From Obrimoposthia wandeli (taxonomy: Eukaryota), in assembly GCA_977020255.1 (NCBI GenBank), contig CDROCS010001715.1:186001-250000 (forward strand): 64,000 nucleotides of DNA. Direction: 5' to 3'. The notes under the pieces were generated by a model. That model had not been told where the DNA came from and did not search any database. It saw nothing but the letters and a program-made list of their open reading frames with translations. The translations under genes were made by a program, and so were the position numbers. Of the stretch, positions 4,150-54,864 are shown in pieces (position 1 is the first letter of the stretch; each line of letters begins with the position of its first letter).

Positions 4150-6072
4150 TATTTTTGAAGACTAGTAACGTTTATTTTAATTTATTTTTTAGGTGTTTAT
4201 TAAAAACCCATTTTTCCTTAAATTCTTCAAATATTTTTAAAAACAAATATTTACAAACCATAACAGTAGTATTTAATAAAGCGGTAATATCTAATCACGT
4301 GTGTGAGAAAATACCTTTTTGATAATATGTGGGATCTTGAATTGAATTCTGGCATTGCTGGGTAGCCAATGAATCTTCCTAAAGTTCACTTTGAACTAGC
4401 ACTTTTCTTTAATTTGGAATCTAAATTTAACCCTTAAAATTTCTGTAAGCAATTTAAATGATTAATATTTGTGCAAACCATTTTGAAAATCAAGTCTTGA
4501 AGTAATAATTCGCACAATGTTAGCATTGGAATTATCTCAGTAGTATTTTCTTTAAAAAAGATCTTATTAGTTAAATCATTTTGATATGTTTTATCACTTT
4601 ATTAATTAGAACGAAAGTTTATTACAATCAATTAAATTATTTGTCTCAATTTTGATCAATTAATGAAGGTATGATATTTTTGAAAGGATTTTGTAAATTT
4701 TCAAAAGATTTTCAATTTTGAATAAAGATTAAAAAAGACATTTTGAAAATGGTAGAAGAAAATCAATTGATTAATATTTTAAAGAAAACAAGATTAGATA
4801 TAATAAAATAAACATAATTCATTAAATATATATTCCATAAGAGCAGCCTCTCATCGACCCGGTAAATTGATTGAGCTTTGATAATCAATACTAAAATGAT
4901 TTGCAGTATTATTAGGTTGAGTTAATGGTAAATATACATTGAATTCTGAGATGCTAATATCCAACTGAGTTTCACTGTATTCGTTTCACTTCTACTAAAT
5001 ATTGTGTATGCTTTCCCGACCCTTTGTCTCTAAGATTTCTTGTATTCTGTATATACTTTTGGTTTTCAGGTAATACTTGTAATTCTTCATCATAAAATTT
5101 ACATATTTTATTTTTTGATCTCCATCCTCAATAAAAGTACATTACTGGAGCAAGTTTGGAATCGATTTTAGTTTTTGAAATACTCCCATCACTCCACCCC
5201 TTCGAAATTCTTTATAAAGCGAGTAGTACTAATTTGTGAAATGTGTACATAATCTCCAATCTTATACTTGGGTTTCTTTCCACTTGAGTCTGATTTCCTG
5301 ACGTTGCCATTATTTCCATAGCATTTTCATCTGAAATATCTATCTGCTCATTTCCATCGAGGGAGAATGCTCATTGTGATTATATACAAATATAATTTTA
5401 GGTAAAATTGTGATCCAAAGTATTTCCTGACTTTTAGTGAAATACTTTTTCAATCGATTCAATCGATCTCAATGTTCAATTAAATCTGTCAACTAGAACT
5501 ATTTTAAATTGAGAAAACATAGAATAATTATTTATCCCAGTTTTTTCATTAAGCCACCAACATGTTTATTATAAAAACTCTCTACCACTATCAGTTAGAA
5601 CATGCATTTCTTTCTGTCATCAATTGTTTCATTGCTTCTAACACATCTATACCAGATTTAGATCTTTAGGCATAGTTTCTAACCTTGCTAAAAACATCAA
5701 CACAAGTTAAAATATATCTGTATCCTGAGCTTTAACGGCACGTTGAATCATCTCCATCAAATCCACTTGCCATAAATCATTACCGTCTGTCTTGTATGAT
5801 CTCGCCGAGAACTGGTGTTTCATCAGTTTGTTCAAGTTGTGCTGCGATTTGTCAACCATGCCCGAGCTTTCTTTTGTTTGTCTTTGCTTCTTTTCCCAAT
5901 TTTGAAATTCCTAAAACCAACGGAATGATTTGGACCGAACCATATTTTCTCCATTGCCAACTAGATGAATTAATTTTAATATTGAGTTTAGAATGAAAGT
6001 TATGTCACCATTAATATCCAGAGATTTTAACTTTCATGTTTACACTATTTTCTATTTATAAATTCCATAATT
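4150..6072 (-). mobile_element. Polinton/Maverick fragment A (integrase plus start of penton), truncated by the LTR at 6073
   Basis: Decayed frames are homologous to the copy C integrase and penton. Left boundary is approximate. Confidence 0.8.
4940..5954 (-). pseudogene. Polinton retroviral-like (c-)integrase, decayed
   Basis: MEKIWFGP start; YKTDGNDLWQVDLMEMI; GYRYILTCVDVFSK; C-terminal KFYDEELQV...KGSGKHTQYLV. These match 50942-51971; several stops and frameshifts. Confidence 0.85.
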
Positions 6073-7463
6073 TGTTATATTACTAATAACTGATCAGTTT
6101 GGGCAAATCCAATATTTCGTAAAATAAGAGTTGGCAATTCCAATATTATATTTGATCAACAGATCAGTTTGGGCGAACCAATATTTCGTAAAATAAGCAG
6201 TGGGCAATTAATTTTGTTTGTCAACAGTCAGTTTGGGCGTTCAACAGGAAATTTCGAAAATCAAAGTGGGCAATTCAATAAAATAAGCCTCAATAAAATG
6301 TTATATTTCTTTTTCTTTGTAAATTCTCAGGAACGATCAAAAACTATTTTAGCAAATTAGCAATTTGTTTTGTGTTTTTCATATATTTGGAACGATCAAA
6401 AATCCAATTCCAATACTTTTTAACAGGAACGATCAAAAATCCAAGTAAATTTGTTTTGTGTTTTTCATATATTTTCCATACAATTGATAAATTAATAAAT
6501 TAAGAATTTGTGGTATACATAAAAATGTTATCCGTAGTTTCCAAATGTAAGTTCTAATAATCACAAATTTTTTAATGAATCCATAAAATTGTAATCCGTA
6601 GAGGCTTATACATGGGACATGCACAGAGTTGAAAAGAGCCATACTGTCCAACTGTGCTGCAGTTGTGTACACACATAGATTAGTGGGCAGAGATGGCACC
6701 ACAACACTATGTTGTATTTTGTCTGAGGAAGGAGAGAGAATCCCTGTGCCAATGCACACACAAACAATCGTCAAGGTTGATCTGGACGTAACAGCTGGGT
6801 ATGGACACACACACACAGAAACTGAAAAGGGCGATACACAATAATAATAATAAAAAATAGCAATTTAACGAGGCAGTAAAAGCTGATAATTGGAGGTGTG
6901 ACATGTACACAACTACTGCAAATAAGCAAGACTAAATAATCATAGGCAATAAAATACGAACTTAAATATCAATAATAATGGTAATAATAATGGTAATAGT
7001 AAAGGTAGAGAATAGTCCTAGAATGTTTAGTGGTAAATCAGATATCAATTAATGTCAGCAATCCGGGGAAAAATGGGCAGCGGAAAGAGAGGATTGTATG
7101 TCCAACTGTGCATGCACATCTCTGCCTTGGTAGCCACCATCCGAAGACGGCCGATCAGGATGACGGGAAAACGATGGGGAAGGATGGCGGGAGAGAGTGT
7201 GTAGCCGGGATCCGCTGACCGTTGCCGACTGAACGAATGCCGACGGCGATCTGCCGCCAGGCTGGGAGACTGGGCGGAAAATTTTTCCATAAATCAATCT
7301 TATCTACATGCCGCCTTCCTGATGAGCCCGGCAGGGCGAAACAGGACTTTCCACCCGTCTGAGGCTGAATTTGAAAAACCTCCCTAATTGTGGGCACTTT
7401 AGATAATTTATAAAATGTCAATTTAAATTGACTTTCTAAATTAATTATTAATTAATAACAACA
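6073..7463 (-). repeat. 3' LTR (left copy)
   Basis: Starts TGTTATATTAC, ends TAACAACA; direct repeat of 20014-21250; tandem units of about 60-70 nt in the first 350 bp. Confidence 0.88.
7313..7365 (+). ncRNA. type I hammerhead ribozyme motif (weakened copy)
   Basis: GCCTTC-CTGATGA-GCCC GGCA GGGC-GAAA-C...GTC-TGAGGC. Core is intact, but stem III has an A-C mismatch and the first stem I pair is C-U. Confidence 0.75.
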
Positions 7464-7799
7464 ATCCTATGGGGGTAAACCAGTCAGACCTCTGACGTTC
7501 ACAAAAAAAATGAAAAATGAATATCCGTTTAGCATGTCTGTCAAAATGTGATTTTAAAAACAAAATTATCAAGGCTGCTAATCCATAATCCAAAAAAAAT
7601 TTGAACGTCAATTTTTATGTTACACTTTCGCGAGTAGTAAAAATATCTATTGCATGATGCATAAAATAATAAGAGTATAATATTTGGTCTTAATTAAAAA
7701 GTTGATGTCAGGATCAAAATTTCAGTAATTTGCAGAAAAATTTTGTATACGAAGTCATTTTAAAAATGATAAACAGTTTAAAAGTTGATAGGTTTTTGA

Positions 7800-10700
7800 T
7801 AACAAATAAGTCAATTGTTTGTGCAGTAATAATAATACCTTTTAACTATACGTTATCTAGAATAAAACAGTCGTTTGAATCAGAGTCGGAGTCGGATATC
7901 TCATTTGGGGTACCCAACAAATCATTCAAACGGAACTCCTCCACCAGTCTTTCTTTACGTTTGTCAAAAACTCGCTTAAGTTTCTTGCGTCTTCTAAACA
8001 AGTGTGATATTTCTTTTGAGATTCTTCTCCAAAATATTTCTCTATCATTGTTCTCAGTGCTATTTTTGGCCTAGTTCTGATCTAATTTCAGTGGATGCAC
8101 CTAGATCTACTATTCTTGCAAACTGACATCTTTCGAGTCGTAAAACTTTTAAATCATTTTCTACTCCCTGCTCCTACTAGGATGTTTCCGACTAGTATTG
8201 TTTGAGCTCTTGCTATAATGTCTTCCGCATCGGCTCTTCCTGTCAATGATTTCTCCGTAAAATGAGTCACTCGATGTACATAATTTCCGGATTCTTTCCC
8301 TCGGTGTGACTATTTCATGTAACACGATCTGGTTCTTTTCATCTATTATCGTGATACTTCCTAAAGCCTGTTTTTGTTAACTGCGGTGGCCATTTCACAA
8401 TCCATAAAAGATTTAACAGGTGCCTGTCTTGTAGGATTATTTTCTATGAACATGATTTTATTTGTCTTTTTTATAAGCTCTATAAAAAATGTATTGCGTC
8501 TAGGACTAAATTTTAATAAATATTCGTTTCTTAATTCGTTTTTTACTGATGGTGTATGAATGATTTTGGAGGAACATGTAACTTAAATCTTTCTCTTGCT
8601 TACTCATTAAGTGGGCTCGTCCTTCTGCTACATGTATCTCTATTTCCTCTATATCTATCAATTCACCTACCAATTCTATTAAACTTATCCTTACATTTTT
8701 TGTATGATGCATGGTGATTATGACACTTTTTCTACTAGTTTTAGTGATTTTCAATTTATTTGGGATGAACGTTTGATTTTCAAAAATGTGTTTGCTCTCA
8801 TCATTATTTTTAAGTTTCTCTTTCCTACTGTCTATACTTCCTATACTTCTTCTATAAAGGAACTTTGCTAAGATATTCATTTTTGGAGTACACTTTGTTT
8901 GTATTTCATCTTTGCTTAAATCTATAACTGGTGGTGAAGGACCGTCTTAACAACTTTCTCCCACTACACGGATCCATTTCCGTTTGTTTGTTGAGTATTC
9001 CATCTGTGATATATATAACAGAATAAGAATACAGCAAGGTCATTAGTCACAAAGCTCATGCAAAAATAAAAATAAATTATTAGTTCATTAGTTAGTTGGT
9101 TAATCAAGAGTATATCTAATATTGTACTAGTTCCTTGTTGCTCGATAATCATAAATAAAGTATAGATATATATATAGATATAATTATGTTTATTATTATT
9201 ATTTTCTCTTCTTTTTCCTTTTTAATTCAGTAAACATTATTTTCCTAAATCATGCTCATCATCTCTATTTCATTCTCAGTCTTTATTAAATGATTTTAAT
9301 TCTACTCACTAGGGGAATTTACTAATTGTCGCATCAGAATCATCGCTTTCTATATGTTGGAATCCCATCAAGTGATTCACCATTGATCGTAAGGATATTA
9401 GTGAATTTAACGCTTCTCTGAGTCTTTGTACTAGTATTTCTTGGCTTGATTGGCTATGTTCTAATCTTTCAATTGCAACGTCAAAAGCATTATTCATTCG
9501 TTCATTCCATTTCCTTGTCTTTTAAATGCGATCTCAGATTTATATTCTCTATCAACAATTTATTTTCCCATTTCTTCTGTCTCTTATATCTTCTTCTATT
9601 ATTTTGTACTAATTTTGAATTTCTCATTTTCTAAAATGTTAAAAAGTTTTTAAGTCTTATTTTAAAAAAAAATAAATAAATAAATCTTTTGATTTTTACA
9701 AATCAGTGTTGTTTTTCTCTTTGTGTTTATAGTTCTTGATTACCGTATCTATTGATGTATTGGATGAATTTGTACCACTTGGTATTATGGATGTTATGAG
9801 TGGACCTGGTGGTCCATACAGTTTGTTTAAGTGAAATGATTTTTTAGTTTTAATTCTTTTAAAAGTTTTTTATTTTTATTATTACTTTTATTAAAATGTT
9901 AAATATTTCAATTATTATTGCTATTATTATCTTAAATTCTGTATGATATATGTTTTTGTGAATGATTTCGTTGACTAAAAAAAAATGTTATATGTTTTAA
10001 GTTCATCGATTTTGATGAATTTATTGTATTTTTTAAAAAGGTTGACTGGTTTTGTATGTTTTCTTTAGAGATGATTGATGATATTTTCTTAAATATTTTT
10101 GTTGTATATTGTGTTAAATATATTTTCATTACTTTTGTTGATTTTAAAATAGGATCTTTTTTATTTTTATTATTAGCCAACTCCGCAAAAAAGAGTTGGT
10201 TGAAACATTTTTGATATCTTTTTTCCTATTGTTTCTAAAGTAGTTATGTTTTTGCAAGTATTCAAAATGTGTCCCCAACTTCTATACATCATTGGTTTTT
10301 ATTTGTGATTACACATTCTCTATATTGCACTATTATTTTCTCTAGATATCTTATATTTTCTATGGTTAAATTTGTTTTAGTTTGTGTATTTTCTAATTGT
10401 TTTTCTGAGTTTTTCCAAAAATTAACATTATGTCCTCTATATCTAATTCTAATGAGGGCTTTATCTAAGTCGTCTATTTTTAGTTGAAATTCCCATTTAT
10501 CATTATTTTATGTTTTGATATATATTTCGCTGTTGTTTCTAATATTGATGCTAGGTATATGTGAGTTGCTATAGTTCGTTGATAAAGTGTAAGGGTGTGT
10601 GTGTTTGATGTTAGTGTAATTTCATATTGTGTTTCATCTCTTAAGAATGGTATTGTATATTTTCGTGATTTTATTCCTATTATTGTTATGTTTTGTTTCT

Positions 10701-10990
10701 GTCTTTTTGTGTAATTTGTATATTTCCGGTTTTGTTTATAAAAAGCGAAATTTTTTAACTTTATAGATGTGATTTCTGGTATTATTGTAATTAAACCAAA
10801 ATTTTTTATAAGATGTGTTGTCGAGTCATGTTTATTTATAACATTTTTTTTATAGTTAGTTTTTTTATCATTTAGTTTGTTAACATTTGCTCCTTGTACG
10901 TTTTTACTTATGAAGAGATAAATTGCGAATATTATTAAAATTTTGAAAAAATCCTTTATTGATATAACTATTGCTTTATTCCATTTACAT
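7800..10990 (-). pseudogene. decayed accessory ORF region between integrase and 3' LTR, unknown product(s)
   Basis: Broken minus-strand frames (8506-8880, 8964-9152, 9309-9497 and others); signal-peptide-like KDFFKILIIFAIYLFISKNVQG near 10890-10960. Confidence 0.45.
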
Positions 10991-11149
10991 TTTTTGTTTT
11001 TAATATTTTTCTCTGTATATCTTGTATTGGTAACATTTGTAAAACTGTGTTTTTGTGTTTGATCTCAAATTATATTTGTGGCTTTTTTTACTGTTGTATT
11101 CTCTTCTGGTACTTGTCGACATCTATTTATGTGTGTTCTTATTTCTTTT

Positions 11150-12250
11150 TGATTTTAGTTCATTGTCGAGTTTAGCTGTTATGTTAGTTCCATTGGTACT
11201 AATAACTGTATATGGTCCTTTTGTATGGTTTTGATAATTTGAGTGATAATCCTACAATGATTTGTGGATTGTGAATCATTATTTACTTCCGATTTTTATA
11301 TTTGATGGTTTAGTTCTTCTATCATAATATTCTTTGTAATTTTCTTGTATGTTTTTACAAATAATTTAGCTTTTCAAATGCTAGTTTTATTCTTTCTCTA
11401 ATTTCTATTTTGTATTCAGGTATTTCTAGGTATTGTGTAGTAGGTTGTAGTAATGTTAGATCAATAGGCATTTGCGGATCTCTGAGGAACATAAGGTAAG
11501 GTGTTTCTCCTGTAGATGCATGTACTGATGTTCTATATGCAAAAAGGCATGGGGGTATGTGCAAATCCCAATCTGTTTGGTTGTTGTTTGTATATGATGC
11601 CATCATATTTTCGAGGGTTCTATTAAATCTTTCTTCTAATCCGTCGGTTTGAGGGTGATATGGTGTTGTATTGATCTTTTTTATGTGAAAGATTTCAGCT
11701 ATTGATGCTAATACATTATTTATAAATTCAGGACCTTTGTCGGTTAATAACTTTCGGGGTGCACTAAAACCTTCGCGATGGTTTCAGCCTTATGATCATG
11801 TGTTGGAAAAGCCTCTGGCCATCTTGTAAAATAATCTGAAAATACTATTATATATCGATTTCCTCGGGGTGTTTCAGGTAATGGCCCCATTACATCCATG
11901 GCAACAGTTTCCATGGGGGCCGATGGATACGGTATTGGTTTTAAAGGTATCTTTGTGGTACGTAAGGTGTTTTTCTTTTAAAGACATATTTCACAAGTAT
12001 TACATCAATTTTTTACATCTTCTTTCATATCAATCCAATAATATTTTAAATTTAATCTCGAATGTGTCTTCTTTGTTGAAAGATGTCCTCCTAAAGCTCC
12101 GTTATGTATTGAAGGAGTAATTGGCATTGTATTTCTTTAGGTATAACTAGTGAGTACTGATTCTTATCGTTGCAATAATGGAAAAGGTGGTGACTGAATT
12201 TATACCGAGATTCAAGTTTTAAATGTTGTCTTAATTTTTCATCTGTTGGA
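11150..12250 (-). pseudogene. gypsy integrase
   Basis: YWIDMKEDV..CNTCEIC zinc finger; METVAMDVMGPLPETPRGNRYIIVFSDYFTRWPEAF; PYHPQTDGLEERFNRT; WDLHIPPCLFAYRTSVHASTGETP; PYKGPY (GPY/F). Confidence 0.93.
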
Positions 12251-12399
12251 ACTTGATTGATGGTGATATACTTAATTATTTGTTGTAATTCCGTATCTTT
12301 GCTTTGAAGATCGGTGATTACTTTATCATCATATCGAGCCTTGATTATTGTAAAAATATTTAATTCGGTGTCATTGGAATTTATTACATTTACTTCTTC

Positions 12400-13620
12400 T
12401 CTTATTCTAGAATAGGCAATCTGCATTGGCATTTGATTTACCTTTTCTATATTTAATTTCAATATCATATTTTGGAGAATTAACGCCCATCTCATTAGTC
12501 TAGATGTTGTATCTTTATGATTTAGTAGCCACTGTAATGGTCTTTGATCAGTATAAACGTGAACTTTTCGACCTAACAAGTAATGTTTAAAATGTTCCAT
12601 TGCAGAAACAAATAGCGAGGCATTCTCTTTCTATTGTTGAATAATTTATTTCGTGTTTTTTAAGACCTCTGCTTGCGTACGCTATCACATGATCTTTTCG
12701 TTATTATCCTGTTGTCCTAGTACTGCTCCTAACGCGTATCCACTTGCGTCAGTCATTACTAGAAACGAGTTGTTGAAATTAGGATATCTCAATATAGGTT
12801 TTTCAATCAATTTTTGTTTTAAGTACTCGTATGACTCTTGTTGTTCCGTTTCCCATTCAAATTTTTCATCCTTTTTAATAAGTTTGTTTAATGGTGTTGC
12901 TATTTGTGCAAAGTTTCTGATAAATCGACGATAATATCCTGCAAGTCCTAAAAATTCTTGTATATTTTTTACTGTTTTTGGAATTGGAAAATTCTTTATT
13001 TTTTCTATATTACTTTCATCTGGTTGAATTCCTTTTGCTGATACTGCGTGACCTAGATAATTCACTTTGTCTTTCATCCATTCACACTTTTTTGGTTTTA
13101 ATTTTAAACCTGCTATTTTTAATCTAAGAAATACATTTTCTAAATCTTTTAAATGTTCTTCAAAATTTTTTTGAAAAAATTAGAATATCGTCGATATAAA
13201 CCATGACATGATCGGCGTCCATCAAAATGTGGCTCATGCATCTCTGAAATGTTGCTGGAGCACCTGTTAATCCAAAAGGTAAAACGTTAAATTCGTATAA
13301 TCCTTCTCCTGTTGAGAATGCTGTTTTTCTGTATCTGATTCCTCTATTTCTATCTGCCAATATCCACTTTGTAAATCTAAGGTTGTAAATATTTTTGCAT
13401 TTTTTAGTTTATCTAAGATTTCATCAATTCTTGGAAGCGGATACGTGTCTTTATGTGTGATCTCATTTAATTTTCTGTAATCTACGCAAAATCTTAGTGA
13501 ACCATCTTTCTTTTTATCAAAACAACTGGAGATGTCCATGCTGAAAAACTTCTTCTTATGATTTTATTCTCTAACATTCCTTTTACCTGTCTTTGAGCTT
13601 CTTCTCTGTAAGCGTATGGG
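12400..13620 (-). pseudogene. gypsy reverse transcriptase and RNase H
   Basis: [86 protein letters not shown]; frameshifted. Confidence 0.95.
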
Positions 13621-13822
13621 ATACGGTAAGGTCGTTGTTTGATTGCTGTATTAATAGTTAACGGAAGGTTATGTTTAATTAAATCTGTTCGTCCAAGGTC
13701 ATATTCATTTTTGCAAAAATTACGTCATATTTTTCCATCAATGATTTTAATTTTGATTTCTCATAATCATTTAATCTAATATTTTCAAATTTTACAGTGG
13801 AATTGTCTTCTATTTTTCATTA

Positions 13823-14215
13823 TTAATTAATTCTATATTCTCTATAACACTTATTTTTCCAAGGCGTGTTCCTACTTTTTAGATGAATCTCGTTTATGTC
13901 TCCATTTAGTATTCTGATAGGTATTGTATTATTTTTTATTTTACAAATTATATTTGGTAGAACGTAATTTAATGTTTCCTGTTGATATTTATAAGGTTCG
14001 AATAAGATGTCTTTTTCTGTAACTATGTTAGTTTCTAATTGTAATATTGTTTCTGTTCTAGGTTGAAGGATGATATCTCCTTTTATTTCCAATTCGTATT
14101 CGCTTTTAGCGTTTGGTCTGTAAATGTCTTTAATTTGATTTTTCTCGAAGTCGAAATGAAAATTGTTTCCTAATTTCCTTAATATATCTATTCTATTATC
14201 ATCTGACATGGACAA
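13823..14215 (-). pseudogene. spacer between protease and RT, possibly a degenerate dUTPase-like fold
   Basis: IILQPRTETIL...LFEP...PIRILN pattern, like spacers seen after the protease in some gypsy pol proteins. No catalytic dUTPase motifs were recognised. Confidence 0.35.
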
Positions 14216-14219
14216 TTTT

Positions 14220-14455
14220 TCATTATTCTAGTAGGTATTTTTATAAATTTATCTCCTATTTTAAAAATGCCATCTAATTTACTAATAATATTTACGGGTT
14301 GACCGTTTGCTGCTGTTATTTGACTGTTATCTGTGTGAAGTAGTGATATTTGGTGTGGTTTAAGAAAGACTCGTCCAAAACTGTTACGCTTGATCCTGTG
14401 TCAATTAAAGCTTTTAATTTGTACTCATTAATTTCAACTTTTTACATAAGGTCGT
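14220..14455 (-). pseudogene. retropepsin (aspartic protease)
   Basis: Removing one A from an A-run near 14440 gives RPYVKVEINEYKLKALIDTGSSVTVLDE (DTG catalytic motif). Confidence 0.9.
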
Positions 14456-16506
14456 CTATCATTATCCATTTGATTTATAGTATATATTGTTGGTGCAGTT
14501 GATTTTTGAACTTTTGTTTCTTCTTTATATTTTTCTAAATCGGGGTATTGTGTAGATTCTGTATTCTCTTTATTTTTATTGTCTACTATTTTTTGTAAAT
14601 TTGTTTCTCGCATTTCGTTTGATAATGCGTTTACAGTATTTTGATGATGATTAAATATAAGAAATTTTGCCAAAAATGGAAAACATCCTAATATTAGTTT
14701 CCATGTTAATCCTCCAACTTTATAAATATAGTATGTGGATAAAATTTGACTCAATAGTATTTTAAAGCATATTAGTAGTGCATATATTCCTACAAGTCCA
14801 GAAAATGCTTGTCCAAAAATTAAAAATTTCCCCCATATTTTTGACATTGTATTTTTTGTAGCTTTTATGTAATGGTTTGGAGAAAGTAATAAATCATAAT
14901 CAGGACGGCTAATTCCGTCTGGTACTGATCTTTCTATGATTTGTGTTAAAATTCGTGATCTTATTTGAGGAAATAAAATTTCTTTTCTTAATTTATCTAT
15001 ATCTTCTTGTATGTAAATGCCTTTTGTATTTAGTTCATTGTCTGGATTTATTTCTATGTCATTTTTTAGATTAGTTAATTGTAGTTTTAGTGGTTGAGCA
15101 ACTATGTCTCTTCTTGGTAATGTTATCCATATATATTTTGAGATTTTATAATGAGGTGCCATTATGTTTGAACAGTTTATTTTTTTTATGCTGAATGTGT
15201 TAAAAAGTATTATTCTGGTGATTGGTTCTACAAATAATGAATGATTTTTGTATGAAATTGGCAATTCTTTGGTACATTTATTGTGATTTCTTATATTAAC
15301 TATTACTTTTTGGCATTGATACGTATATAGTACCTCTCCCATTACTCTTCCGAAAGTACCATCTGGTAACGGTAATAATGGTGTTATTAATTCTGGATTT
15401 GTAGCAATAATTGCTAGTTTTGTTTTCAAAATTTCTTGATTTAATTTACAGTCATTCATTATTGTTTCTCTATAAATAGCTTCTATTGTCATTAATCCTT
15501 TGTGATAAAAATAATCTAATTTATTATTGAAATAATCGTAATTTTTTATATCAAATTTTGTTGGTGTAGTTTTTGCATTATAAATTTTTCTTACTTAGAT
15601 ATATTCCTTTATAATTAGTTGTATAAATAGAGTGTCCACATCGGGATTCCTCTTTCTTTTTAATAAATCGCATACCTGAACCTCGTTCAGTTGACATTAA
15701 AATAGTTGGAGTTGATGTTTTTGTATTTTTCTAGTTCTATATTTTTAAGTATATTTTTTGGAATTCGTTGATCTAACTCTGGATCATCTTTGAATCTTTG
15801 ACCTTGAATTATTTGGAAATTTTCTGATTTTAGTAGTATTAATTTACATTGGTCTGTTTTACCTTATAGTATAAAATTGAAGATCCTGTGTTACAATATC
15901 CGATATTTGCTGCACAGAATGGCATAGTCACCATGGTATTTGTAGATGGATCAAATGTTGCCTTAAATGTTCTTAGTTCTACCTCAAAGTTTTTTATAAC
16001 TACTAAACCACTTTGTTTAACTCCCATTACGACGTATGATCCTGTTGTGCATTCTCCGTCAGATTTGATAGTTCCTACCACCGTAATCATTTGTTGTATT
16101 ATTTTGTTTTTTATTGCTTTTACTTTTATTTCTCTATCTATTCTCAGTTCGCCTGTTGCAAAAGCATCTTTACAATTTAACGCGTCAACAATTATTGGTG
16201 TTTTTCCTAATGCTGGCTTAACAATTGAATTATGGCTGTGTTGAATGTTATGAATGTTTCCACATGTACTCTACATTCGAAAACTTCTGTATTTATGTAA
16301 TCTGTTTCCTGGTATACATGAAATAACTTGGTGGTTTAAACTTTTACTTCATTTGGATCTGCGTCGGCGCATTGTTGTAAATCCATTAGTGAATATTTAT
16401 TTTGAATACTATATTTTGAACAATCATATGCTTCAAGAGCATTTATAGGTTTTATTATATTTGTAATTATACATATCATAAATATTATTTGAATTATTTT
16501 CCATAA
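14434..16506 (-). pseudogene. class III viral fusion glycoprotein (chuvirus G/herpes gB-like env) with internal signal peptide and C-terminal TM segments
   Basis: LWKIIQIIFMICIITNIIKPINA/LEAYDCS...YSLMDLQQC; G..GRVMGEVLYTYQC...KCTKELPI....FVEPITRII...C....P.Y.I...W; hydrophobic GQAFSGLVGIYALLICFKILL and WKLILGCFPFLAKFLIF. This Cys/motif pattern matches chuvirus-type glycoproteins. Confidence 0.8.
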
Positions 16507-18358
16507 ATTCTGGATGATTTTGTTAAAATTATATGTATTTTTAAGATTTGAATTTTTACTATTTTTTGGTGATTTTCGTTTATTTTTATTTTTCGATTTT
16601 TTATCTTGTGTTTGAGTGGTTTGATTTATTTTTGTACTTATTTGTGTTCTTTTTTCTAATGTTAGACAACCGTTTCTAAATATTTCTCCGAATTCGGATT
16701 GAGAGTTGGTACTATTTGTGTTTTGCTCATTGTTTTGGTATTGCTGATGTGTTTCTTTATAGCGATTATCTATTTCTTGTTGTCTTAATCTCATCAATGC
16801 AACTTCTTCTGTTTCCTGAGTTATATCAGTGTTTTCAATAGTATGTATTGGGTTTCTGTAAGCATATTGTTGATTTTGATTGTTAAACTGTACTGTTTTT
16901 TGAATCTGTGGTTGTGGTTGTTGTTGTTGTTTTATTGTTGTGTTACCAAATTGATTCATCATTGTATTTAGTTTGCTACATTCATCCGTATTGTGATTTT
17001 TCATATTACAAATTTTCCAAAATTTTGTATTAGTATTAAAATATTTAGCTTGATTATTTTGATTACTGAAATTATTATATGGGCTTCTAAAATTACTATT
17101 TGTATTTTTGAAATTATTATTTGGATTGTTGAAGTTATTATTTTGTGGTCGTATATTATTACTTTGTCTGTATAACAGTTTTCGGCAAGTTTCAATAGTA
17201 TGATTGTCTTTTTTTACAAAATCTACAAAATTTGTTGTTGGTTATTTTATAACAATTCTCTATTGTGTGATTTTGCAGTCCACAATTTGTACATTTTTGG
17301 AAAGGTCTTTGTGTAATTTGTGAGTCTGTATAGTTTCTGTTTGTTTGATTCCTATAAAAGTTATTTGTCGGTGGTGTATATTGTTGCTGGTTTTGGTAAT
17401 TAGATTGTGTATTTGGGTTATAGTTTTGAGTTTGATTGAAATTTGGTGGTGTTGTAGGTCTTTGTATTTTTTCAAAGGTTAATGCTGAAACTTCAGATTG
17501 TTGTAACATGTTTAATCTTGTTTCTACAAGTTGAGCCTTATTTACAGCTTGCTGAAAGTTTTCTACTTCTAGTAGAGCTGGATGATTTTTGATTTTATTA
17601 TTTAATCCATGTAGAAACTGATGTAATAGTAAGCGCTCTCTTAAAACTTCCTCAATTCCAGGGAATGATTTTAGGGCTAAACGTCTTAATTCAATTGCAA
17701 AAATATTTGTGGGTTCTCCTAAATGTTGCTCACGTTGTCTAAACTGATTTAAGTAATTTTGCTCTGATTGGGTTCCTAAAATCATATTTTGAAAATTCTG
17801 AACTAAATGGTTCCATGTGTCTTTTTGTTCATTGTTTAATTCTATATAACTTGTTAAGGCAGTGCCTTTTAAATACGCTGGAAAAACCCTAAGTTTCTCT
17901 TCATTAGTCCATTCAAATGCCTGAGCAAATGAATCAAATCTATTTAAAAATTCGGGTAATGAAGATTTATCGCCATTGAAAGCGTCCAAAGGATCATTTA
18001 ACTTATGTTCAGCCATTATTTGAGGTTGATTATCTATTTCTATATTATTTGGTTCGTTCAATTCGGGTTCTGGTGTGTTTGTAGTTTGAGTAGCTTCTGT
18101 TGAGCTATCGGTTTCTAGTGTTTGGTTAGTAAGGCCATCTGTTAGACTTTCTGAGCTGGTTAAGTTTAGTTGGATTGGGTGTTGGTGTTGTAATGAAGTT
18201 TCTGGGAAAAATTCGCTATTTGTTCTAAAGCTTATTTGAGATTTAGGTCTCTGTGGTGGTGATTCTTTAGGTTCTGTTCTTACTAGTCGGGCTTGAATTC
18301 GTCGCCAGTGAAGACTAGCGCTACGTTTGGATTTATGAATTTTATTATTTTTATTTAT
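16507..18358 (-). pseudogene. Gag with three CCHC-type zinc knuckles and Asn/Gln-rich linkers
   Basis: Capsid-like FLNRFDSFAQAFEWTNEEKL...LKGTA; knuckles CTNCGLQNHTIENC, CRFCKKDNHTIETC and (W)KICNMKNHNTDEC; one frameshift in an A-run near 17212. Frame is open up to 18358. Confidence 0.88.
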
Positions 18359-19994
18359 TCAACGCTTTTTATCACTATGTTGTAGATTTTATTAAAGTTG
18401 TTGAATTTATAATATTTAAATAACCAATTTTTAGCTTTTTTTGAATCAGATAATTTGTCCCAGACTTCTCAAGATTGCTGACCTATTGGATGTCGGCTAT
18501 CCTTGTTTCGCAATTATGAAAAAATGGATACAGAAAAATCTTGTTCAAAATTCTGTAAGTGCTTGAGGTTGATCACAGTATCCTTACTTTTGAATAAATC
18601 AGTTATACACTACCGCTAAGGGTCAATCTAATTCAGTTATATTATTGTTACGTATAAAAAAAAAATTTTGATTAATAAAATATTATTTGATTTGATTACT
18701 TTTATTACAAACAGCAAGTCAATTAATTGTTTGTTATACTTTATCAATGAAGATAGGAATAAAAATATTTATATATACGCAGCACAATAGGATTATTTAT
18801 TGATACTTTTCAAAGTTAAATTTGAAAAATGGAATACAATATATACGATTTTAATAATTATGAATTAGTTATAACTTTTAATGATGTCAACTTTTTAATG
18901 TAACAACTCTATGGTTCCAAATCAGTTTACCAAAGAATAAAAATGAATGTAAAATAGTAAGTCCAACTTCGAGAGATAATATAAATGGTATAAGTAGTTG
19001 AATCAAAAATCAAATACAATTGTAAAGCCGTAAAATTGTTTTTAATAAAAATTATGATATATGAACTTTTAAACAGTAATTATATTTTCAGAAATGTTTA
19101 GGTCAAGGTATTCCTACAGTCTCCCGCAATTCTATTTTCTACCTTCTTAACCAACCACCAAGACCACAACTGCTCCCTTATTCTACGGTTATCTGCTTAT
19201 TTTGGTCTCGGAACCTTTGTTTCGATTACCGCAGAGAGAGGAACAGTCCCGCTCAAAAATGGTCGAAAATTTTCAAACAATACTCGTGAGACTATAAGAA
19301 TCCCTAATTTTCAAAAATAATATTTATACGATTATGACATTCTATCTATCACTATTAGAAATAAATATAATTTTAAATACAATAATCAATTTTTAACACA
19401 AAAAAAAAAAAAACTATATAATTTTAGTTTATACTTTTTTAAATTTTCAGTTATTTATTGTAATCTCTACTTATATACACATATATAAATGGAAATTAAC
19501 TGAATATTTTATTCCCAGAAAAGAAACCGCAAAAATAAATATGTTAACAAATAAACCCAAAATATGAGTTTTAAAATTACTTCAAAGAAAACAATATAAA
19601 TATATTCTATAGTAAAATTTATGTAAGTTATGTTGTTCAAAGTTATTTATTGGATTAGTTTATAGAAGTTTGTGTTATAACCACAAATCAAATTCACAAT
19701 ACCGTTAAATGTAAATAAATTGAATATTACAAATGATGGAGTTAATATTAATAAAATTGAATACTAAAATGATTGTTAATAAAAAGTTAATTTTCAAAAA
19801 TTGAATTCAAAGTTCTCTAGGGCAACTAATCACAAATGAATACTACAAATTGTTATAGCTATAAAAAGTATTTAAATAGTTTCTGTTATTTTGAGCTTAA
19901 TGCAAAATCCGACCAAATAATGTTAATATATGAAAATGTAAAACAAAAACCAAAAATAAGGTAAAATCAAAATAATAAATGACCTGCTTGCGTT

Positions 19995-20011
19995 CTGGAT
20001 CGGGCTCACCA
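19995..20011 (-). promoter_or_regulatory. primer-binding site
   Basis: Minus strand reads ...ATATTACA-AT-TGGTGAGCCCGATCCAG directly inside the 5' LTR. TGG is complementary to tRNA CCA; the cognate tRNA was not identified. Confidence 0.8.
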
Positions 20012-20013
20012 AT

Positions 20014-21250
20014 TGTAATATTACAAATAACTGATCAGTTTGGGCAAATCCAATAATTTCGTAAATAAGAGTGGGCAATTCCAATATTATATTTGATCAA
20101 CAGATCAGTTTGGGCGAATCCAATAATTTCGTAAAATAAGAGTGGGCAATTCCAATAAAATAAGCCTCAATAAAATGTTATATTTCTTATTTCTTTGTAA
20201 ATTCTCAATTGATCAACAACTATTTTAGCAGAATTAATTTTGTTTGTGTTTCGTTCAACAGGAACGATCAAAAATCCAATTCCAATACTTTTTAACAGGA
20301 ACGATCAAAAATCCAAGTAAATTTGTTTTGTGTTTTTCATATATTTTCCATACAATTGATAAATTAATAAATTAAGAATTTGTGTTATACATAAAAATGT
20401 TATCCGTAGATATACGGGACAAAAATCAATCAGTGTAAGAGAGGCTGTGATGCATGCATGCACCCAGGTTGAAAGGACGCCAAACTGTCCAACTGTGCTG
20501 CAGTTTCTACACACATGCATTTAAATGGAGCCATCAAACACTATATGATCCAGAATCCCTCTCGAAAACACATTCACGGAATCTGCTAACAAACACACGC
20601 ACACACAGAAACTGAAAAGGGCGATACACAATAATAATAATAAAAATAGCAATTTAACGAGGCAGTAAAAGCTGTAATTGGAGGTGTGACATGTACACAA
20701 CTACTGCAAATAAGCAAGACTAAATAATCATAGGCAATAAAATACGAACTTAAATATCAATAATAATGGTAATAATAATGGTAATAGTAAAGGTAGAGAA
20801 TAGTCCTAGAATGTTTAGTGGTAAATCAGATATCAATTAATGTCAGCAATCCGGGGGAAAATGGGCAGCGGAAAGAGGGGATTGTATGTCCAACTGTGCA
20901 TGCACATCTCTGCCTTGGTAGCCACCATCCGAAGACGGCCGATCAGGATGACGGGAAAACGATGGGGAAGGATGGCGGGAGAGAGAGTGCAGCCGGGATC
21001 CGCTGACCGTTGCCGACTGAACGAATGCCGACGGCGATCTGCCGCCAGGCTGGGAGACTGGGCGGAAAATTTTTCCATAAATCAATCTTATCTACATGCC
21101 GCCTTCCTGACGAGCCCGGCAGGGCGAAACGGGACCACCCCGTCGGAGGCTGAATTTGAAAAACCTCCCTAATTGTGGGCACTTTAGATAATTTATAAAA
21201 TGTCAATTTAAATTGACTTTCTAAATTAATTATTAATTAATAACCCAACA
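20014..21250 (-). repeat. 5' LTR (right copy)
   Basis: TGTAATATTAC...TAACCCAACA; near-identical to the left LTR except a central block and the tandem-repeat region. Confidence 0.9.
21101..21150 (+). ncRNA. type I hammerhead ribozyme (intact)
   Basis: Stem I GCCUUC/GGAGGC, CUGACGA, stem II GCCC-GGCA-GGGC, GAAA, stem III ACGGG-ACCAC-CCCGU; cleavage predicted after C21144 (GUC). Confidence 0.92.
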
Positions 21251-22369
21251 CATTTATTTTTGTTTTCTGAGTTATAAAAAATAAACTAATAGCTTTAAAT
21301 TTTTGAATAAAATGAGAAACTTAATCAAGAAGCATTGATAGTAGCAACGAAAATGGAAGAAATTATTGAAGAAGAAAATAAACGATCAGAATTCTTAATT
21401 GCTTTGGCTTTTATTGAACCCATAATAGCTCATGCTTCCTGTATGAAAATGAATCGTATGACTTACCTTTGTGATAGTTTGTTTAAAGCTAAATTTAGTC
21501 AAATTAGTGCAAAAAGATTAAACATAAATTCAATGAGTGAAATTTGCGAGAATCAATTATATTGGAAATTATCGAGATGGTTTTGATGAAACTGAGATTC
21601 TAAAATCAGAATCCACCCATGTAATCATTACATCTATGGTGGATAAGATATCTTATAGAAATTAAAGTATACGTCTATCTTTGTAAACTCGGAATTAGGA
21701 GAAACAATATTGCAATATTATAAACAGACTAATAATATAATTAAAGAAATTATAAAAAAAAAGTTTTAGTATGTGGTCATTATGGAAGTTTACATGCTGT
21801 TTGCATTTTTATTTCTTTCAATGGGCGTTAGCACTGCATCCAATCTTGTTAAAGTTAAACGTAGTATTGATACACCTAGCGAAACTATGCTTAATCAAAT
21901 ACTTATTTTTAATCATTATCATATATAAATTGTATTCTTTATGAGTCTTTATTTGTTAGTATCTTTATTTGTCAGTGTATTTCAGCATCCAATCAGATTC
22001 TAGTTATATAGTATATAAACAGATTATATTTTATTTCTACTTCATTATTATGTTTACTCCCAATTATTTCAAGATATATGTTGCTTAAGCGTTAGATGCA
22101 TTCATCTCAAAAAATCTTAAAGGAAAATATGTCTTGAAACTCATCGAGACAACGGATCTGCCCATGGAAGAGCATGTAAAAAGAGTTATGCTCAACAAAT
22201 CTATCAAATGACTCATATTGGGCTACAATCAAAGGAAACAAAATCACGAGGAGCAGAAGAATAAGAAAAGCCTTTTCTGGGAGTAGAGTTTTTTATTGTG
22301 TATTGGTGGATATAATAAAATATTTTAAATAACTTTGTCTTATAAACATTATCTCAACACTCTAATATT

Positions 22370-23013
22370 TTAAATATGAACTTAAAAAATAATTCAGTTT
22401 TTAAAATAGTGGTGGCGAGAAAATTCTTTTAATTCGCAAGTTACTACAAAATATTAAATACTTTAGATTTAAGTTTAATAAGACATATTGGCATCAGAGG
22501 AGATGGAGAAGCAGGTTTTACTAGTAAAGAGTTAAAAATATAAAAAATATAAAAGCCAATAAAGGATTTGATGATATTCGGTATGAGAGATTATATCGAC
22601 ATGATGTTATTGTTATTGATGAATTGTATCGATATGCAAATAAAGAGAGTAATTTCAATAATTTATTCACTAAAATAGCAAGACATTGTGAAGTAACTGT
22701 TATTTTCTTCCCATAAAATCTGTTTCAACAGGATGGGAATCATAGAACTCGTAATTTAAATGTGCATTACCTTGTTATATTAAAGAATCCACATGATCCG
22801 ACTGTTACTGATTTTGTTTCAAGGTAAACTTACCCTAATAATATAAATTACTTAATTGATTCATTTCATGATGCAAGTACTGTTCCTCACGGGAACATTT
22901 TTATTGATTTGACACAAGATTGTTGTGATGACTTAAGATTTAGATCTGATATAGTCAATCCATCCGTTATTACCGTCTATAAACAATCAAAGAAACCAGT
23001 TTCTCGAAGATGA
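22370..23013 (+). pseudogene. Polinton packaging ATPase (A32/FtsK-HerA-like)
   Basis: VIVIDELY (Walker B), NLFTKIARH..VTVIF..*NLF, RTRNLNVHYLVILKNPHD, PHGNIFIDL...DDLRFRSDI; Walker A is decayed. Confidence 0.85.
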
Positions 23014-23111
23014 GTTTTAAAAAGGAAATTATTAAACCTGAAGTCAAGAAATTGATTAAATCAGTTTTAAGTGCAAGAAAGATGGTTGCTCAAAAATCAA
23101 ATAAGCAATGA
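23010..23111 (+). CDS. small Lys-rich Polinton ORF
   Basis: MSFKKEIIKPEVKKLIKSVLSARK..., homologous to MPFKKLIV...EVNKLIKSVVRNK at about 50367-50507. Confidence 0.5.
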   Translation: MSFKKEIIKPEVKKLIKSVLSARKMVAQKSNKQ

Positions 23112-23450
23112 ATGGTTGTTCTAGATAAGAAATCTATGAGTATTGCCTATTTTAATTCTCTTAAGCGTGAACCCGCTATTCGTCGTCCAACTATTCTTAA
23201 ATCATTCCCTACTTTTGTAGTCGATAATTTACTTAATATAGCACAAAAAATAGTTTCTGCTAAATCATTTGTTAGGACTAAAATGAATCGACATAAGAAA
23301 CCTCTACTTGATTTGTTTCATGTTAAAACACGAGCCTGTAAACGTAAATTGCCATAGAAGCAAATATAAAGATATTTAGGATTTATAGTAACGATTGTTA
23401 GTTCGATAGTTGGTGCACTTGCTAGGAGACTAATAAAACTATGTTTATAA
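23112..23450 (+). pseudogene. small Polinton ORF with amphipathic C-terminus
   Basis: ILKSFPTFVVDNLL...KPLLDL, homologous to 50534-50853. Confidence 0.6.
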
Positions 23451-24100
23451 ACATAATTTTGAATCAATAATATGAGATAACTTCCAGATATACCTAAATT
23501 AAATATAAAAATCAAATCGTCTTGCTGTAATGGAGAAAATATGGCTCAATCCAAGTCATCCTGTGGGTACACAGGAGTTTCAAAATTGGCAAGAGAAAGG
23601 GAAAGAAAGGGAAAGAGAAAACTTAGATGTGGTTGAAAATTAAACTAGCTTACAGCTTAAACAAACCGATGAGACATCGGTTCCCAACGAGATCATACAA
23701 ACCGAGCGGCCTGAATGATTTATGGCAAGCATATTTGATGGAAATGATACTGTATGAGAGTATTAAAAATATATATATTTTAACTCGTGTTGATGTCTTT
23801 AGTAGATTTGCAAGAGCTCTAAAGTCTAAATCCATAATGATGTTTTAGAGACAATGACGCAAATGATAAGGGAAATAAAACCAGCAAATTTCCAAATAGA
23901 TAGTGGAAAGGAATTTTATAATAAACATGTTAGTACATTATTAAAAAACATGATAATAATCATTATTCAGTGTTTTCTCAATATAAAACTGCCTTAGTTA
24001 AGCGTTTTAATCAAACATTAAGATATATATTGAAAGAGTATTTCACTAAGCAGGAAAATATAACCTGAGTCAGCGTTTTACTTCAAATAATACATGCATA

Positions 24101-25169
24101 TGTTGGGAATATCTTATAAATATTTATTTAAAAAATAAAAAATATATATATATATATATAAAAATTAAAAAATGAGAATTAATTAATTAAGGAATTAATT
24201 AAGAATTTCCCTTATTAGGGAAAAGTTCTATTTAGATAAAATATGCACTTTGGCATTTTAGTTTAGAGTGGTTAATCTCCGACAGGAAAAAAAAACGTTT
24301 CGCCCTGCCGGGCTCATCAGGGAGATGGCTTGTTATCTCTGACTTCGCGGTGGGTTCTGCGAAGCCAGAGATAACAATAATAAAAAGCCAGAGAAAAGAA
24401 GGAAAGATTTCCCTTTTCATGTGGCGACGAATATCGTCGACATGTGATGTTGGTGTGCGCAAGTACACATTTCAACACACACACTCACACAGCGGACATC
24501 ACTCAACACACTCACACAGCGGACATCACTGTACTCACTCACTTATTCTCTGTACTCACTCACCTACTCTCAGTCTTGTGTATGTGTGTGTATTTTATGC
24601 AAAACTATTTTCCTCTCTGTCCAGATACGATTCTTGCGGACAGATGGGCAGTTTGCTTGTGTGATCGTTTTCTCCCTCTTCCCAGATGCGCTACAATCGA
24701 TTGGCATGTGGGCATGATTTCGCGCTTCCAGTTGTGGGCAGCGTTTTCATCGGCACATATCCCCAGCGGAAGAATAAATTGTTGTGTACCTGCTATAAAA
24801 GCAACACATTTTCAATAACTAAAAAAGTCATGATTACACAGAAAAATACAGAATCATAAATATTATTATTTTATCATCGTTATTAAAACTGATAGAACAT
24901 CAAATTATTGAACTATATTTAATTGAAATCAGGACTATATTGTTATTCTAAAATTGAACAATTTGATTTGATTTGATTTTCCAGCTATTACTTTGGAAAC
25001 ATTATTCTATTATTTTAGAAACAATTTGAACAATTTGATTTTCCAGCTATTACTTTGGAAACATTATTCTATTACTTTAGAAACAATTGGATTTGATTTT
25101 TTCGGATATTGTTTTGATTAAGACAATAAAAATTGATAATAAAATTACTTATTATTCAATATATTAACA
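24101..25169 (+). mobile_element. solo LTR of a family related to 6073/20014, in opposite genomic orientation
   Basis: TGTTGGG...ATATTAACA; perfect 4-bp TSD CATA (24097-24100, 25170-25173); related tandem repeats at 24950-25110; TATAAAA near 24795. Confidence 0.92.
24275..24326 (-). ncRNA. type I hammerhead ribozyme
   Basis: Minus strand reads ATCTCC-CTGATGA-GCCC GGCA GGGC-GAAA-CG(T9)CCT-GTC-GGAGAT; perfect 6-bp stem I and minimal stem III. Confidence 0.88.
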
Positions 25170-26329
25170 CATACAATCATAGTGAACAGTCATCATTAGA
25201 GAGAAAGAGACCTATTGATGTTACAGATGAAAATGCTATCAAAATTTGGCAACATCGTAATCAAAGAAAAGTTGTAAAGAAACCCAAGTATAAAATTGAG
25301 GATTATGTACGTATTTCTCAAATTAGTACTACTCCTTTTATAAAGAATTTCTAAGAGAATCGAAATTAAATTGAAGGGGGAAAATTTGAAATAGTTTTTA
25401 ATGATGAAATTATTGCAGAACAATATGTATTTCCAACTAAACCTAATGATGGAAAATATGTGGCTTCAGGAATTATGGATAAACATAGTAAGTATCCAAT
25501 AATATGTTTTAAGATAAAAAAAATAATTCACTAAACATGAGAGGAAAAAAAACAAAAACTTATATATTCAAAATTTAAACTACTTAAAATCAAAAAAGTA
25601 AAACCAAAAGCAATGTTAAAGAAAAATATACAAAAATATACAAATTAATAAGTAAAGAAAAAATTACTATTTTTATTCAAATTTTCTGATTGGATTGAGA
25701 GTAAGTTCTACATTAAGTTAATCTCATTGGCTTAATACTATTTTAAAAATAGTATATAAGAAAGTACGAAGCAGCTGAGAATGGTAAGATTATTGATATT
25801 ATTTTTAATTTATCTTTTTCAGAATTGCAAGATGAATAATAAACTCTGTTTTAATCGTCAACAAGGCCAACCCCCTCGACTTCCCATCATGTTCAATGTT
25901 CCATACAACGTTCTCGATGTACCACATCGCTAATCGAGAATGCAACCATGCGGAAGTCCCGAAGAGCGAAGAGCGGACCAGCTCAACAACCAACAATAAC
26001 CGAAAGTAACTTTTTGACAAAAACGTGACATCATGAACTAACCCTGTGTATCGCATACTGCGATAAAATATCTACCAGAAATTGTATGTTATAAATTAAA
26101 TCTTCTTGTAAAATTGTAACGATTCTCGACGATTTTAAGTATGTTGTATATTTGGAACTGTAATTATTATAATTGAAACTCCTAAAGACAATCTTTTTAT
26201 ATCTGAGAAGTGAAAATCATCAAAATAGTGACAAAATTCGGTTAAGTAGCTTAGGAAGAGATAAAAGTTTGTATAAGGATTTAAATTAATACACTCCCAA
26301 AAAACCTAATCATAAATAATGCCATGCAT

Positions 26330-50853: not shown

Positions 50854-50941
50854 AAACAATTAATTCAAAAATCAGCTAAAGATATGGGTGCTAACCCTTC
50901 TTTACCTAAATTTAAATTTTCTATATATTGAAATTGTTGTA

Positions 50942-51971
50942 ATGGAGAAGATATGGTTCAATCCAAAAGATCCAATTGTATACACAGGAATTTCAAAATT
51001 AGCAAAAAGAACAAAACAAAATTACAAGAAAACGCAGAAATGGCTGAGCGATCAGTTAGCCTACAGTCTGAACAAGCCGATGAGAAGAAGGTTTCCAACT
51101 AGAGTTTACAAAACCAGCGGTCCTAATAATTTATGGCAAATGGATTTGATGGAGATGATCCCATATTCTTCCATTAATAAGGGATACCGATATATTTTAA
51201 TATGTATTGATGTATTTAGCAGGTTTGCTCATGCAATTCCAGTTAAAGCAAAGTCTTCAATAGCTATGCTTGAAGCCATTAAAGAAATATTAAAAGAGGA
51301 CATTCCACAAAATGTGCAAACTGATTTAGGAAAATAATTTTATAATAAGCAAGTTCAATCATTATTTAAACAAAATAATATAAATCACTACTCAGTGTTT
51401 TCACAATACAAAACAGCAGTAGTTGAAAGATTTAATCGTGCTTTAAGAGATCGAATAAAAAGGTATTTCACAAAAGAAGGAAATGAAAAATGGGTCCAAG
51501 TTTTACCTAAAATAATACATGCATATAATCACTCTGAACATAGAGGTCTCAAGGGAATGAGACCTGTTGATGTTACTAACAAAAACTCTATGGATATTTG
51601 GATAGACAGGAATAAAATAGAAAATATTAAAAAAGCTAAATATAAGATTAAACGAATATGTTCGAATTTCTAAAATTAGCTCTACTCCTTTTATTAAAAA
51701 ATTTGATCAGAATTGGAGCGATGAAATATTTTGTATAAGTAAAATTGATCAAAAGAGTAATTCAATAATGTATACTATTAAAGATGCTGACAATAATATC
51801 GTTCACGGTAAATTTTACGATCAAGAACTACAAGTAATATCATATAAACCTAGCGTTTTCCGAATTCAAAAAATATTAAAATCTAAGGGTGCCGGTAAAC
51901 ATAAACAATACTTTGTTCAATGGCATGGTTATTCAGACCCAACTTGGATATCAGCATCTAATATAATATGA
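50942..51971 (+). pseudogene. Polinton integrase with C-terminal chromo-like domain
   Basis: LWQMDLMEM, YILICIDVFSRFA, VQTDLGK*FYN, AVVERFNRAL, YFVQWHGYS; one stop and one frameshift. Confidence 0.95.
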
Positions 51972-52790
51972 AGTCTATGTATATGGTGTTACCTAGTAAC
52001 GGATGTCCGAAGACTCAACCAGATAAGGACGCTAGTAGCTTTATTATCGATTTGGAAAATCCTATAAATCTCCAAGGTTAATGGGAAGCGACTTTAACAA
52101 AATTTCCTTTTTATTATTCTCCAATTTCTATCAGAAAAAACTCACATATTTCGTTTACAAAAGAATTTGATCATGAAAAAACAACTGAAGTTGTGATCGG
52201 GTTTGATAGTAAAGGAAATTTCTTTTACAATTGTATAGATAAAGAAGTGAAAGTTATATATGAAAATAAAAAAGTCAGATTTAAAAATCAATTAAAATAT
52301 CTTCAAGTTATTAAAATTACATTTGAATCTGAAAAAGAAGCTCTTCAATTCAGTTTTGATAGTGAACAAACAGTAGCTCGTAATAGACGGAATATAGTCT
52401 CATCTAAATCGGTTAGAAATGTTCCTGGTAGAGTAGCAAGAGTGTTGTTACTTGAAACGAGACCAAAGAATGTAGTGGAATTGAAAAAGTTTTCAAAAGA
52501 TTATAAAATAGATAGTGAAGTGAATTTTATCTAAATTAAGACAGAAGGAATATAGTGAATATTTGGATAAATGTGTAACATTAAAAAAAAGTAAATTATT
52601 GTTTACAGTAAAGATCAATTTGAAACGGGTTTCATTTCAAAGGAAGCCACCATAAAAGCTAAAAATAAGGCAAAACGTTTATATGCTGTTAATCATTTAT
52701 ATATTTATACTAATTTAATAGAACCAACACTTGTAGGAGGACAACAAGTTCCACTTTTGAGAACAATATGGATATCTCAAAATCAAACTA
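51968..52790 (+). pseudogene. minor capsid protein (penton, PX)
   Basis: MYMVLPSN...FIIDLENPINLQG*WEATL start; YIYTNLIEPTLVGGQQVPLLRTI end. Confidence 0.8.
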
Positions 52791-54320: not shown

Positions 54321-54321
54321 A

Positions 54322-54703: not shown

Positions 54704-54864
54704 GTGTTTTAAAAATAAATATTTTTAATGTTTTATTTTTAATTATTTTTTAAATCCATAATAAATATAAGGGTAAAATAATAAAAGACATAAGACGAAT
54801 TTTTTTAATACATTTATTAAAAACAACATCACAATGAGATCTGTCAGCAAAGATAAGGTCCATC

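Follow-up and report, generated by a model that had tools for sequence, protein, structure and literature searches.

What could a retroelement gain from a self-cleaving ribozyme that lies on the strand opposite to all of its genes? The question is raised by a 64,000-nucleotide stretch of the Obrimoposthia wandeli genome (contig CDROCS010001715.1 of assembly GCA_977020255.1, positions 186,001 to 250,000; hereafter the window), in which positions 6073-21250 are a broken GAG-ENV-POL Ty3/gypsy element with a glycoprotein B (gB)-type envelope, encoded on the - strand, and in which hammerhead motifs occupy the long terminal repeats (LTRs) of this element on the + strand. The analysis is based on the 64-kb window and on genome searches, and it indicates that an antisense hammerhead in the LTR is a trait of the whole lineage.

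The element is bounded by a direct repeat of ~1.3 kb (6073-7463 and 20014-21250) found by comparing the window with itself, and every coding frame between the two repeats (gag, env and pol) is on the - strand. Since a primer-binding site (PBS) on the - strand is located just inside the right repeat and the frames have the same polarity, this repeat is identified as the 5' LTR, and the - strand as the sense strand of the element. Searching with the hammerhead core pattern CUGA-N-GA...GAAA places three hammerheads in the window, two in this element and one in a solo LTR of a sister family, all of them antisense to their own LTR:

6073-7463, - strand: 3' LTR, starting with TGTTG at 7463 and ending with CA at 6073
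7313-7365, + strand (antisense): left type I hammerhead, decayed, with its core at 7319-7342 and a predicted cut after 7359
20000-20011, - strand: PBS of 12 nt, just inside the 5' LTR
20014-21250, - strand: 5' LTR, with an AT-rich U3 end followed by a stretch of 57-65% GC
21101-21150, + strand (antisense): right type I hammerhead, with its core at 21107-21130, all three stems paired and a predicted GUC cut after 21144
24101-25169, + strand: solo LTR of a sister family (TG...CA, CATA/CATA target duplication), sitting in an integrase remnant
24275-24326, - strand (antisense): type I hammerhead of the solo LTR, with its core at 24320-24297, stem III decayed and a predicted cut after 24281

The opposed polarity that an earlier note had read from this DNA, with hammerheads on the + strand and the PBS and open reading frames on the - strand, is thereby upheld, as is its placing of the hammerheads 100-150 nt from the U3 end in both LTRs (100-149 nt for the right copy). 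The note had also assigned the same polarity to the solo LTR, which indeed reads on the + strand with its hammerhead on the - strand, 174-225 nt from the LTR start. The motif has the make-up of a type I hammerhead, with CUGANGA, GAAA and NUH elements, three stems and an open stem I. Full stem pairing is found only in the right copy, which folds within 1-2 kcal/mol of the best structure and has conserved GCC and UGA at its flanks. The left copy has one mismatch beside the core in stem I, another in stem III and an altered loop III, its hammerhead fold lies 5.4-7.3 kcal/mol above the best structure and its sequence is unique in the genome; for the solo copy the difference is 10-11 kcal/mol. Rfam scored only the solo copy among the window hammerheads, under its gathering score, and the best scores of genome and window copies (24-33 bits) did not reach the cut-offs of 34-48.5. 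For the two main copies, minimum free energy z-scores did not reach significance. Elsewhere in the window there is a loose fourth core match, at 35390.

Genome-wide, the 24-nt core has 3,642 exact matches compared to none for the reversed control, which argues that the cores are not chance occurrences, and patterns for other stem II forms gave 233 matches (control 5) and 633 matches (control 47). We inspected 30 loci for each of the three pattern sets (90 loci) and found a usual layout consisting of an LTR start, an AT-rich stretch, a conserved box and a ribozyme on the opposite strand 71-222 nt from the start. All 10 hammerhead pairs enclose gag/env/pol genes of the opposite strand. In 10 elements chosen by a reverse transcriptase (RT) search, an LTR U3 end was recognized in 17 of the 20 flanking regions, with an antisense core in every one of the 17; the RT-chosen set is a single subfamily (99% identity), and most other loci were chosen via the core itself. 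The antisense hammerhead is also present in a distant family with 41% identity in gag and 35% in env. The antisense hammerhead in the LTR is therefore not peculiar to the window element, but a trait of its lineage.

At 62 of the 90 loci (30, 15 and 17 of 30) an LTR-start signature lies downstream and on the other strand, but 12 of the 30 first-class loci also have it upstream on the core's own strand; as this signature is loose, polarity rests on the genes and the PBS instead. Twelve second-class loci had flanks to examine, of which three adjoin lineage genes, all on the opposite strand, seven show no match and two have weak, unrelated-looking matches, one per strand. A same-strand exception (L189, a core with an env fragment) was set aside as a nested LTR in inverted orientation, a reading taken from its U3 layout only. 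We also rejected a separate plus-strand element as owner of the repeats, the case that the earlier note had named against its own reading, as the hammerhead loci are LTRs of this lineage.

Conservation of the ribozyme structure was assessed in 61 motifs (63 minus L072 and L078, which are not hammerhead-like) representing 42 stem haplotypes. Pairing in stems I, II and III was 0.82, 0.93 and 0.87 compared to 0.63, 0.87 and 0.74 with shuffled partners, and none of 2,000 shuffles was as high. Two-sided changes occur in all three stems, including compensatory swaps between C-G and G-C and between U-A and C-G. Conservation of the core is partly pre-selected as it belonged to the search pattern; N7 varies freely (U 33, C 18, A 10) and GUC is kept in 48 of the 61 motifs. 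Wobble counts (G-U 57 vs A-C 28) favour the antisense strand as the one that folds. Stem I has at least 5 pairs and stem III at least 4, with GUC present, in 30 of 41 copies. Between families the ribozyme is often the sole alignable part of the LTR, in several sister LTRs homology stops at the ribozyme 5' edge, and contig depth over 7308-7443 is ~10- to 100-fold above that of the rest of U3 (four runs, one sample). Stems that covary across families with otherwise unalignable LTRs indicate that the predicted hammerhead structure is under selection. In microbial type II hammerheads that share this stem II, loop I contains the GCC and UGA found here beside stem I, which hints that tertiary contacts may be kept. 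With 16 of 18 LTR pairs counted, the ribozyme did not decay faster than its flanks after insertion (6 events over 929 columns compared to 28 over 2,413 and 11 over 1,285). The left ribozyme of the window (7313-7365) has ~6 changes in 59 columns compared to 2 in 230 flanking columns, a clustering absent from 16 other pairs.

The position of the ribozyme within the LTR suggests which transcripts it would encounter. A sense TATA-like box is present at ~640-860 in 17 of 20 PBS-anchored LTRs, past a GC-rich stretch that starts at the ribozyme, and by this box the ribozyme is most likely located at the outermost border of the GC-rich U3, ahead of the probable transcription start. Backward transcription from the LTR promoter would meet the ribozyme first. 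Poly(A) signals number 513 on the sense strand (501-557 expected) and 181 on the antisense strand (153-175 expected), a comparison that is uninformative because the sense strand is also undepleted. A search for a host RNA-dependent RNA polymerase gave no match, and neither did its controls.

We give an even chance to the explanation that the ribozyme cuts antisense RNA, produced from the element's own LTR promoter or by host read-through, into pieces lacking a cap or a poly(A) tail and so limits the export of triggers for PIWI-interacting RNAs (piRNAs) and small interfering RNAs (siRNAs). This preferred explanation agrees with the first option of the earlier note, in which cutting antisense read-through RNA would limit the formation of dsRNA or piRNA precursors, so that the note's interpretation is supported in part. 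Antisense RNA could come from the GC-rich LTR promoter firing backwards, in which case a transcript from the 3' LTR would otherwise traverse the whole element in antisense, or from transcription that enters an inverted insertion from a host gene or a piRNA cluster. With the predicted cut, the upstream piece would lack poly(A) and the downstream piece a cap, so that neither would be an exported antisense transcript, and the element would likely be spared small-RNA silencing. In Drosophila, antisense transcripts that reach the cytoplasm from clusters or from host 3' untranslated regions suffice to start piRNA immunity (PMC13226689). A more specific form of this proposal, possible though doubtful, is a protein-free counter-defence in which the antisense LTR ribozyme would sabotage the piRNA "trap" by cutting cluster or host reads of inverted insertions before export.

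Several points weigh against antisense cutting as a defence. Cleavage, antisense transcription and the effect on silencing are all predictions, and the piRNA precedent comes from flies. Work in human cells describes the 5'-OH fragment left by a ribozyme as stable (PMC6938672), so that a cut need neither destroy the antisense RNA nor halt the polymerase. As the cut is placed at the distal end of the antisense LTR, an incoming read-through RNA would keep ~1 kb of antisense U5-R-U3. The mostly core-selected loci and the single subfamily behind the RT-selected set belong here too, as do a shuffle control that ignores the relatedness of the motifs and a TATA-box count that has no chance control, the window's own LTRs holding only a weak box.

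Identical anatomy and placement would be expected if the ribozyme acted as an insulator or end-maker, uncoupling backward or read-through transcription from processing and shielding the promoter or adjacent genes, independently of small RNAs. We regard this as unlikely: a 5'-OH end is a poor entry point for exonucleases, so termination would not be assured, and the gain for the element is less clear. Ty1 and HTLV-1 (human T-cell leukaemia virus type 1) are known to produce regulatory antisense RNAs, and the cut might similarly set one end of a functional antisense RNA, either a short capped U3 RNA that ends in a cyclic phosphate, or a nuclear 5'-OH RNA that is stable and tunes expression of the element. 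The reported stability of 5'-OH products (PMC6938672) would suit such a role, but promoter-side sequence turns over between close subfamilies, leaving no conserved RNA body, and antisense frames of at least 80 amino acids within 3.6 kb of the cut are found in 5 of 13 copies, with a single one recurring, in 2 copies. This makes a functional antisense product quite unlikely.

The earlier note had further proposed that the two hammerheads bracket a 13.8-kb unit whose antisense RNA could be released and circularise. The predicted cuts do define a unit of 13,785 nt (7360-21144), but the bracketing does not point to design. Because U3 is copied into both LTRs during reverse transcription, any U3 motif will bracket the element automatically, and LTR replication accounts, as a by-product, for the ribozyme in both LTRs as well as in solo LTRs. 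Release of a 13.8-kb antisense RNA that circularises in the manner of retrozymes would be helped by type I geometry, in which stem I would hold the 5'-OH and cyclic-phosphate ends together, and both ribozymes are still paired in many sister copies. However, the left ribozyme of the window copy is decayed, no antisense frame is conserved, and an antisense circle would have no usable PBS, whereas retrozyme circles carry a PBS and are <1.1 kb (PMC7761336, PMC4918200). We therefore consider such a circle improbable. Most improbable is a passenger motif, or one kept for a DNA-level or sense-strand reason such as a factor site or a sense hairpin, with no cleavage in vivo: its location among conserved U3 boxes, the many decayed copies and the suggestion by Craig et al. 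that hammerheads possibly parasitise Penelope elements (PMC8557442) would agree with this, but stem letters vary while pairing and core are retained, N7 is free, GUC persists in 48/61 and wobbles favour the antisense strand.

The remaining features of the element place it among known retroelements:

7464-7468, - strand: AGGAT at the plus-strand primer position, common to the 3' LTR junctions of the family and not a classic polypurine tract
8509-8946, - strand (sense): accessory frame Y, without a Pfam match, retained by sister copies at 35-45% identity
10483-11064, - strand (sense): accessory frame X, without a Pfam match, retained by sister copies at 53-91% identity
11358-14227, - strand: pol in pieces, frameshifted, with RT/RNase H at 12094-13179 and integrase at 11358-11783
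14437-17241, - strand: env in pieces, located between gag and pol, a Monjiviricetes-type (gB-like) fusion glycoprotein (PF24664, E 8e-60)
17195-18358, - strand: gag (PF03732)

Paired TG...CA LTRs, a PBS and the RT-RNase H-integrase order identify a Ty3/gypsy element, and the RT of Ty3 is the nearest solved structure to the window RT. The 12-nt PBS fits host genes for tRNA-Trp(CCA) and tRNA-Arg(UCU) equally well, in both cases at the 3' end. A tandem array elsewhere in the genome (C5734:143176-151119) has a 207-bp period and ~36 pattern matches, with 4 tRNA-Trp genes called in a scan of 1.1 kb. The plus-strand primer position (7464-7480 and sister copies, across families) has the sequence ...CCCCCATAGGAT or ...CCGGAGGAT, with no purine run. 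Accessory frames on the sense strand, ~3.5 kb in all, separate integrase from the 3' LTR (7870-11064 in the window); they have no Pfam matches and are kept across families. The flanks of the full copy (AATT/CATT) agree in 3 of 4 letters and its two LTRs diverge over a 269-column patch (6158-6800 vs 20029-20590), for which reasons this copy is probably a mosaic. LTR mosaics are common: in 2 of 8 RT-picked elements (L141/L142 and L145/L146) the promoter sides of the 5' and 3' LTRs are unalignable and the ribozyme is alignable. In two further cases (L148 and L150, on genome contigs C1970 and C2445) a PBS directly follows the 3' LTR, indicating head-to-tail arrays that share an LTR.

Errantiviruses found in nematodes, bryozoans and flatworms are known to have the GAG-ENV-POL layout with a gB-type envelope (Chary and Hayashi, PMC13524379). 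Errantiviruses with an HSV (herpes simplex virus)/gB-type ENV share with the window element its gene order, including the gB-type env between gag and pol, a Ty3-like RT and a size of ~15 kb (PMC13524379), and a by-eye comparison of env with the Schmidtea errantivirus 1 row of the supplement gave ~46 of 107 identical positions, which hints at a flatworm host without establishing it. The word "ribozyme" does not occur in the main text of that paper, and the six Schmidtea rows give no PBS type; relative to described errantiviruses, the LTR hammerhead is the new part. Viral contigs yielded no relative, and a word search recovered one ENA protein. In relatives P0003 and P0005-P0007, one of which was deposited as a bacterial metagenome-assembled genome protein, a single long frame comprises envelope, protease-like domains, RT and integrase, an unusual Env-Pol polyprotein that has two or three protease-like domains in P0005 and P0006.

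Plant LTR retrozymes resemble the window element in having a hammerhead in each LTR, a PBS and Ty3/gypsy-like ends, and share with the solo LTR a 4-bp target duplication (Cervera, Urbina and de la Pena, 2016, PMC4918200; PMC7761336). They differ in being non-coding and smaller than ~1.4 kb, in having type III ribozymes on the same strand as the PBS and in forming circles (PMC4918200, PMC4918198, PMC7761336), whereas the window element is coding, 15 kb in size and of type I, and in it as in its sister copies the ribozyme is opposite to the PBS. Penelope-like elements and animal non-LTR retrozymes likewise have type I hammerheads of unclear function in terminal repeats (PMC8557442, PMC7761336, bioRxiv 10.64898/2026.07.22.740005), but these are often minimal forms, and the repeats that hold them are pseudo-LTRs or short tandem repeats that lack a PBS. 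The window lineage instead has full three-stem forms in true LTRs, and a Ty3-like RT, integrase and PBS in place of the pseudo-LTR, Penelope RT and GIY-YIG endonuclease of Penelope elements. Microbial type II hammerheads (class in PMC3088659) in metagenome and viral contigs have the identical core and a stem II with a GGCA loop, and their loop I (UGA...GCC) equals the stem I flanks of the LTR ribozyme; they differ in permutation and in their GC-rich context, and none of 21 loci matches the proteins of the element. This is a likeness only, from which ancestry would not follow. Several of these microbial hammerheads (L051-L071) are located just upstream of apparent start codons. Our literature search, which left two RNA-journal surveys, their supplements and the Perreault alignments uncovered, found no antisense ribozyme in a coding LTR element. 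Hammerheads of Yarrowia may belong to an LTR family, the text available on them speaking only of "interspersed repeat elements".

Both insertions are surrounded by Polinton-like remnants (integrase and protein-primed polymerase B) at 4994-5991, 21300-25500 and 50864-57241. The piece at 22500-23000 presumably resembles a packaging ATPase, although it has no such Pfam match.

A known class of element and a known class of ribozyme are thus combined in an arrangement that we did not find described. Retroelement ribozymes are described in the literature consulted as processing the RNA of their own element. Here, thousands of ribozyme copies lie on the strand that is never packaged, kept in structure across diverged families of a coding, envelope-bearing lineage, and genomic hammerheads, the role of which is mostly unknown, gain a specific and testable job. 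If these ribozymes do cut antisense precursors, this would be a new kind of transposon answer to piRNA/siRNA defence, making the trap model testable from the transposon side. The solo LTRs, which number thousands, would also scatter potential RNA cut sites over host transcription units.

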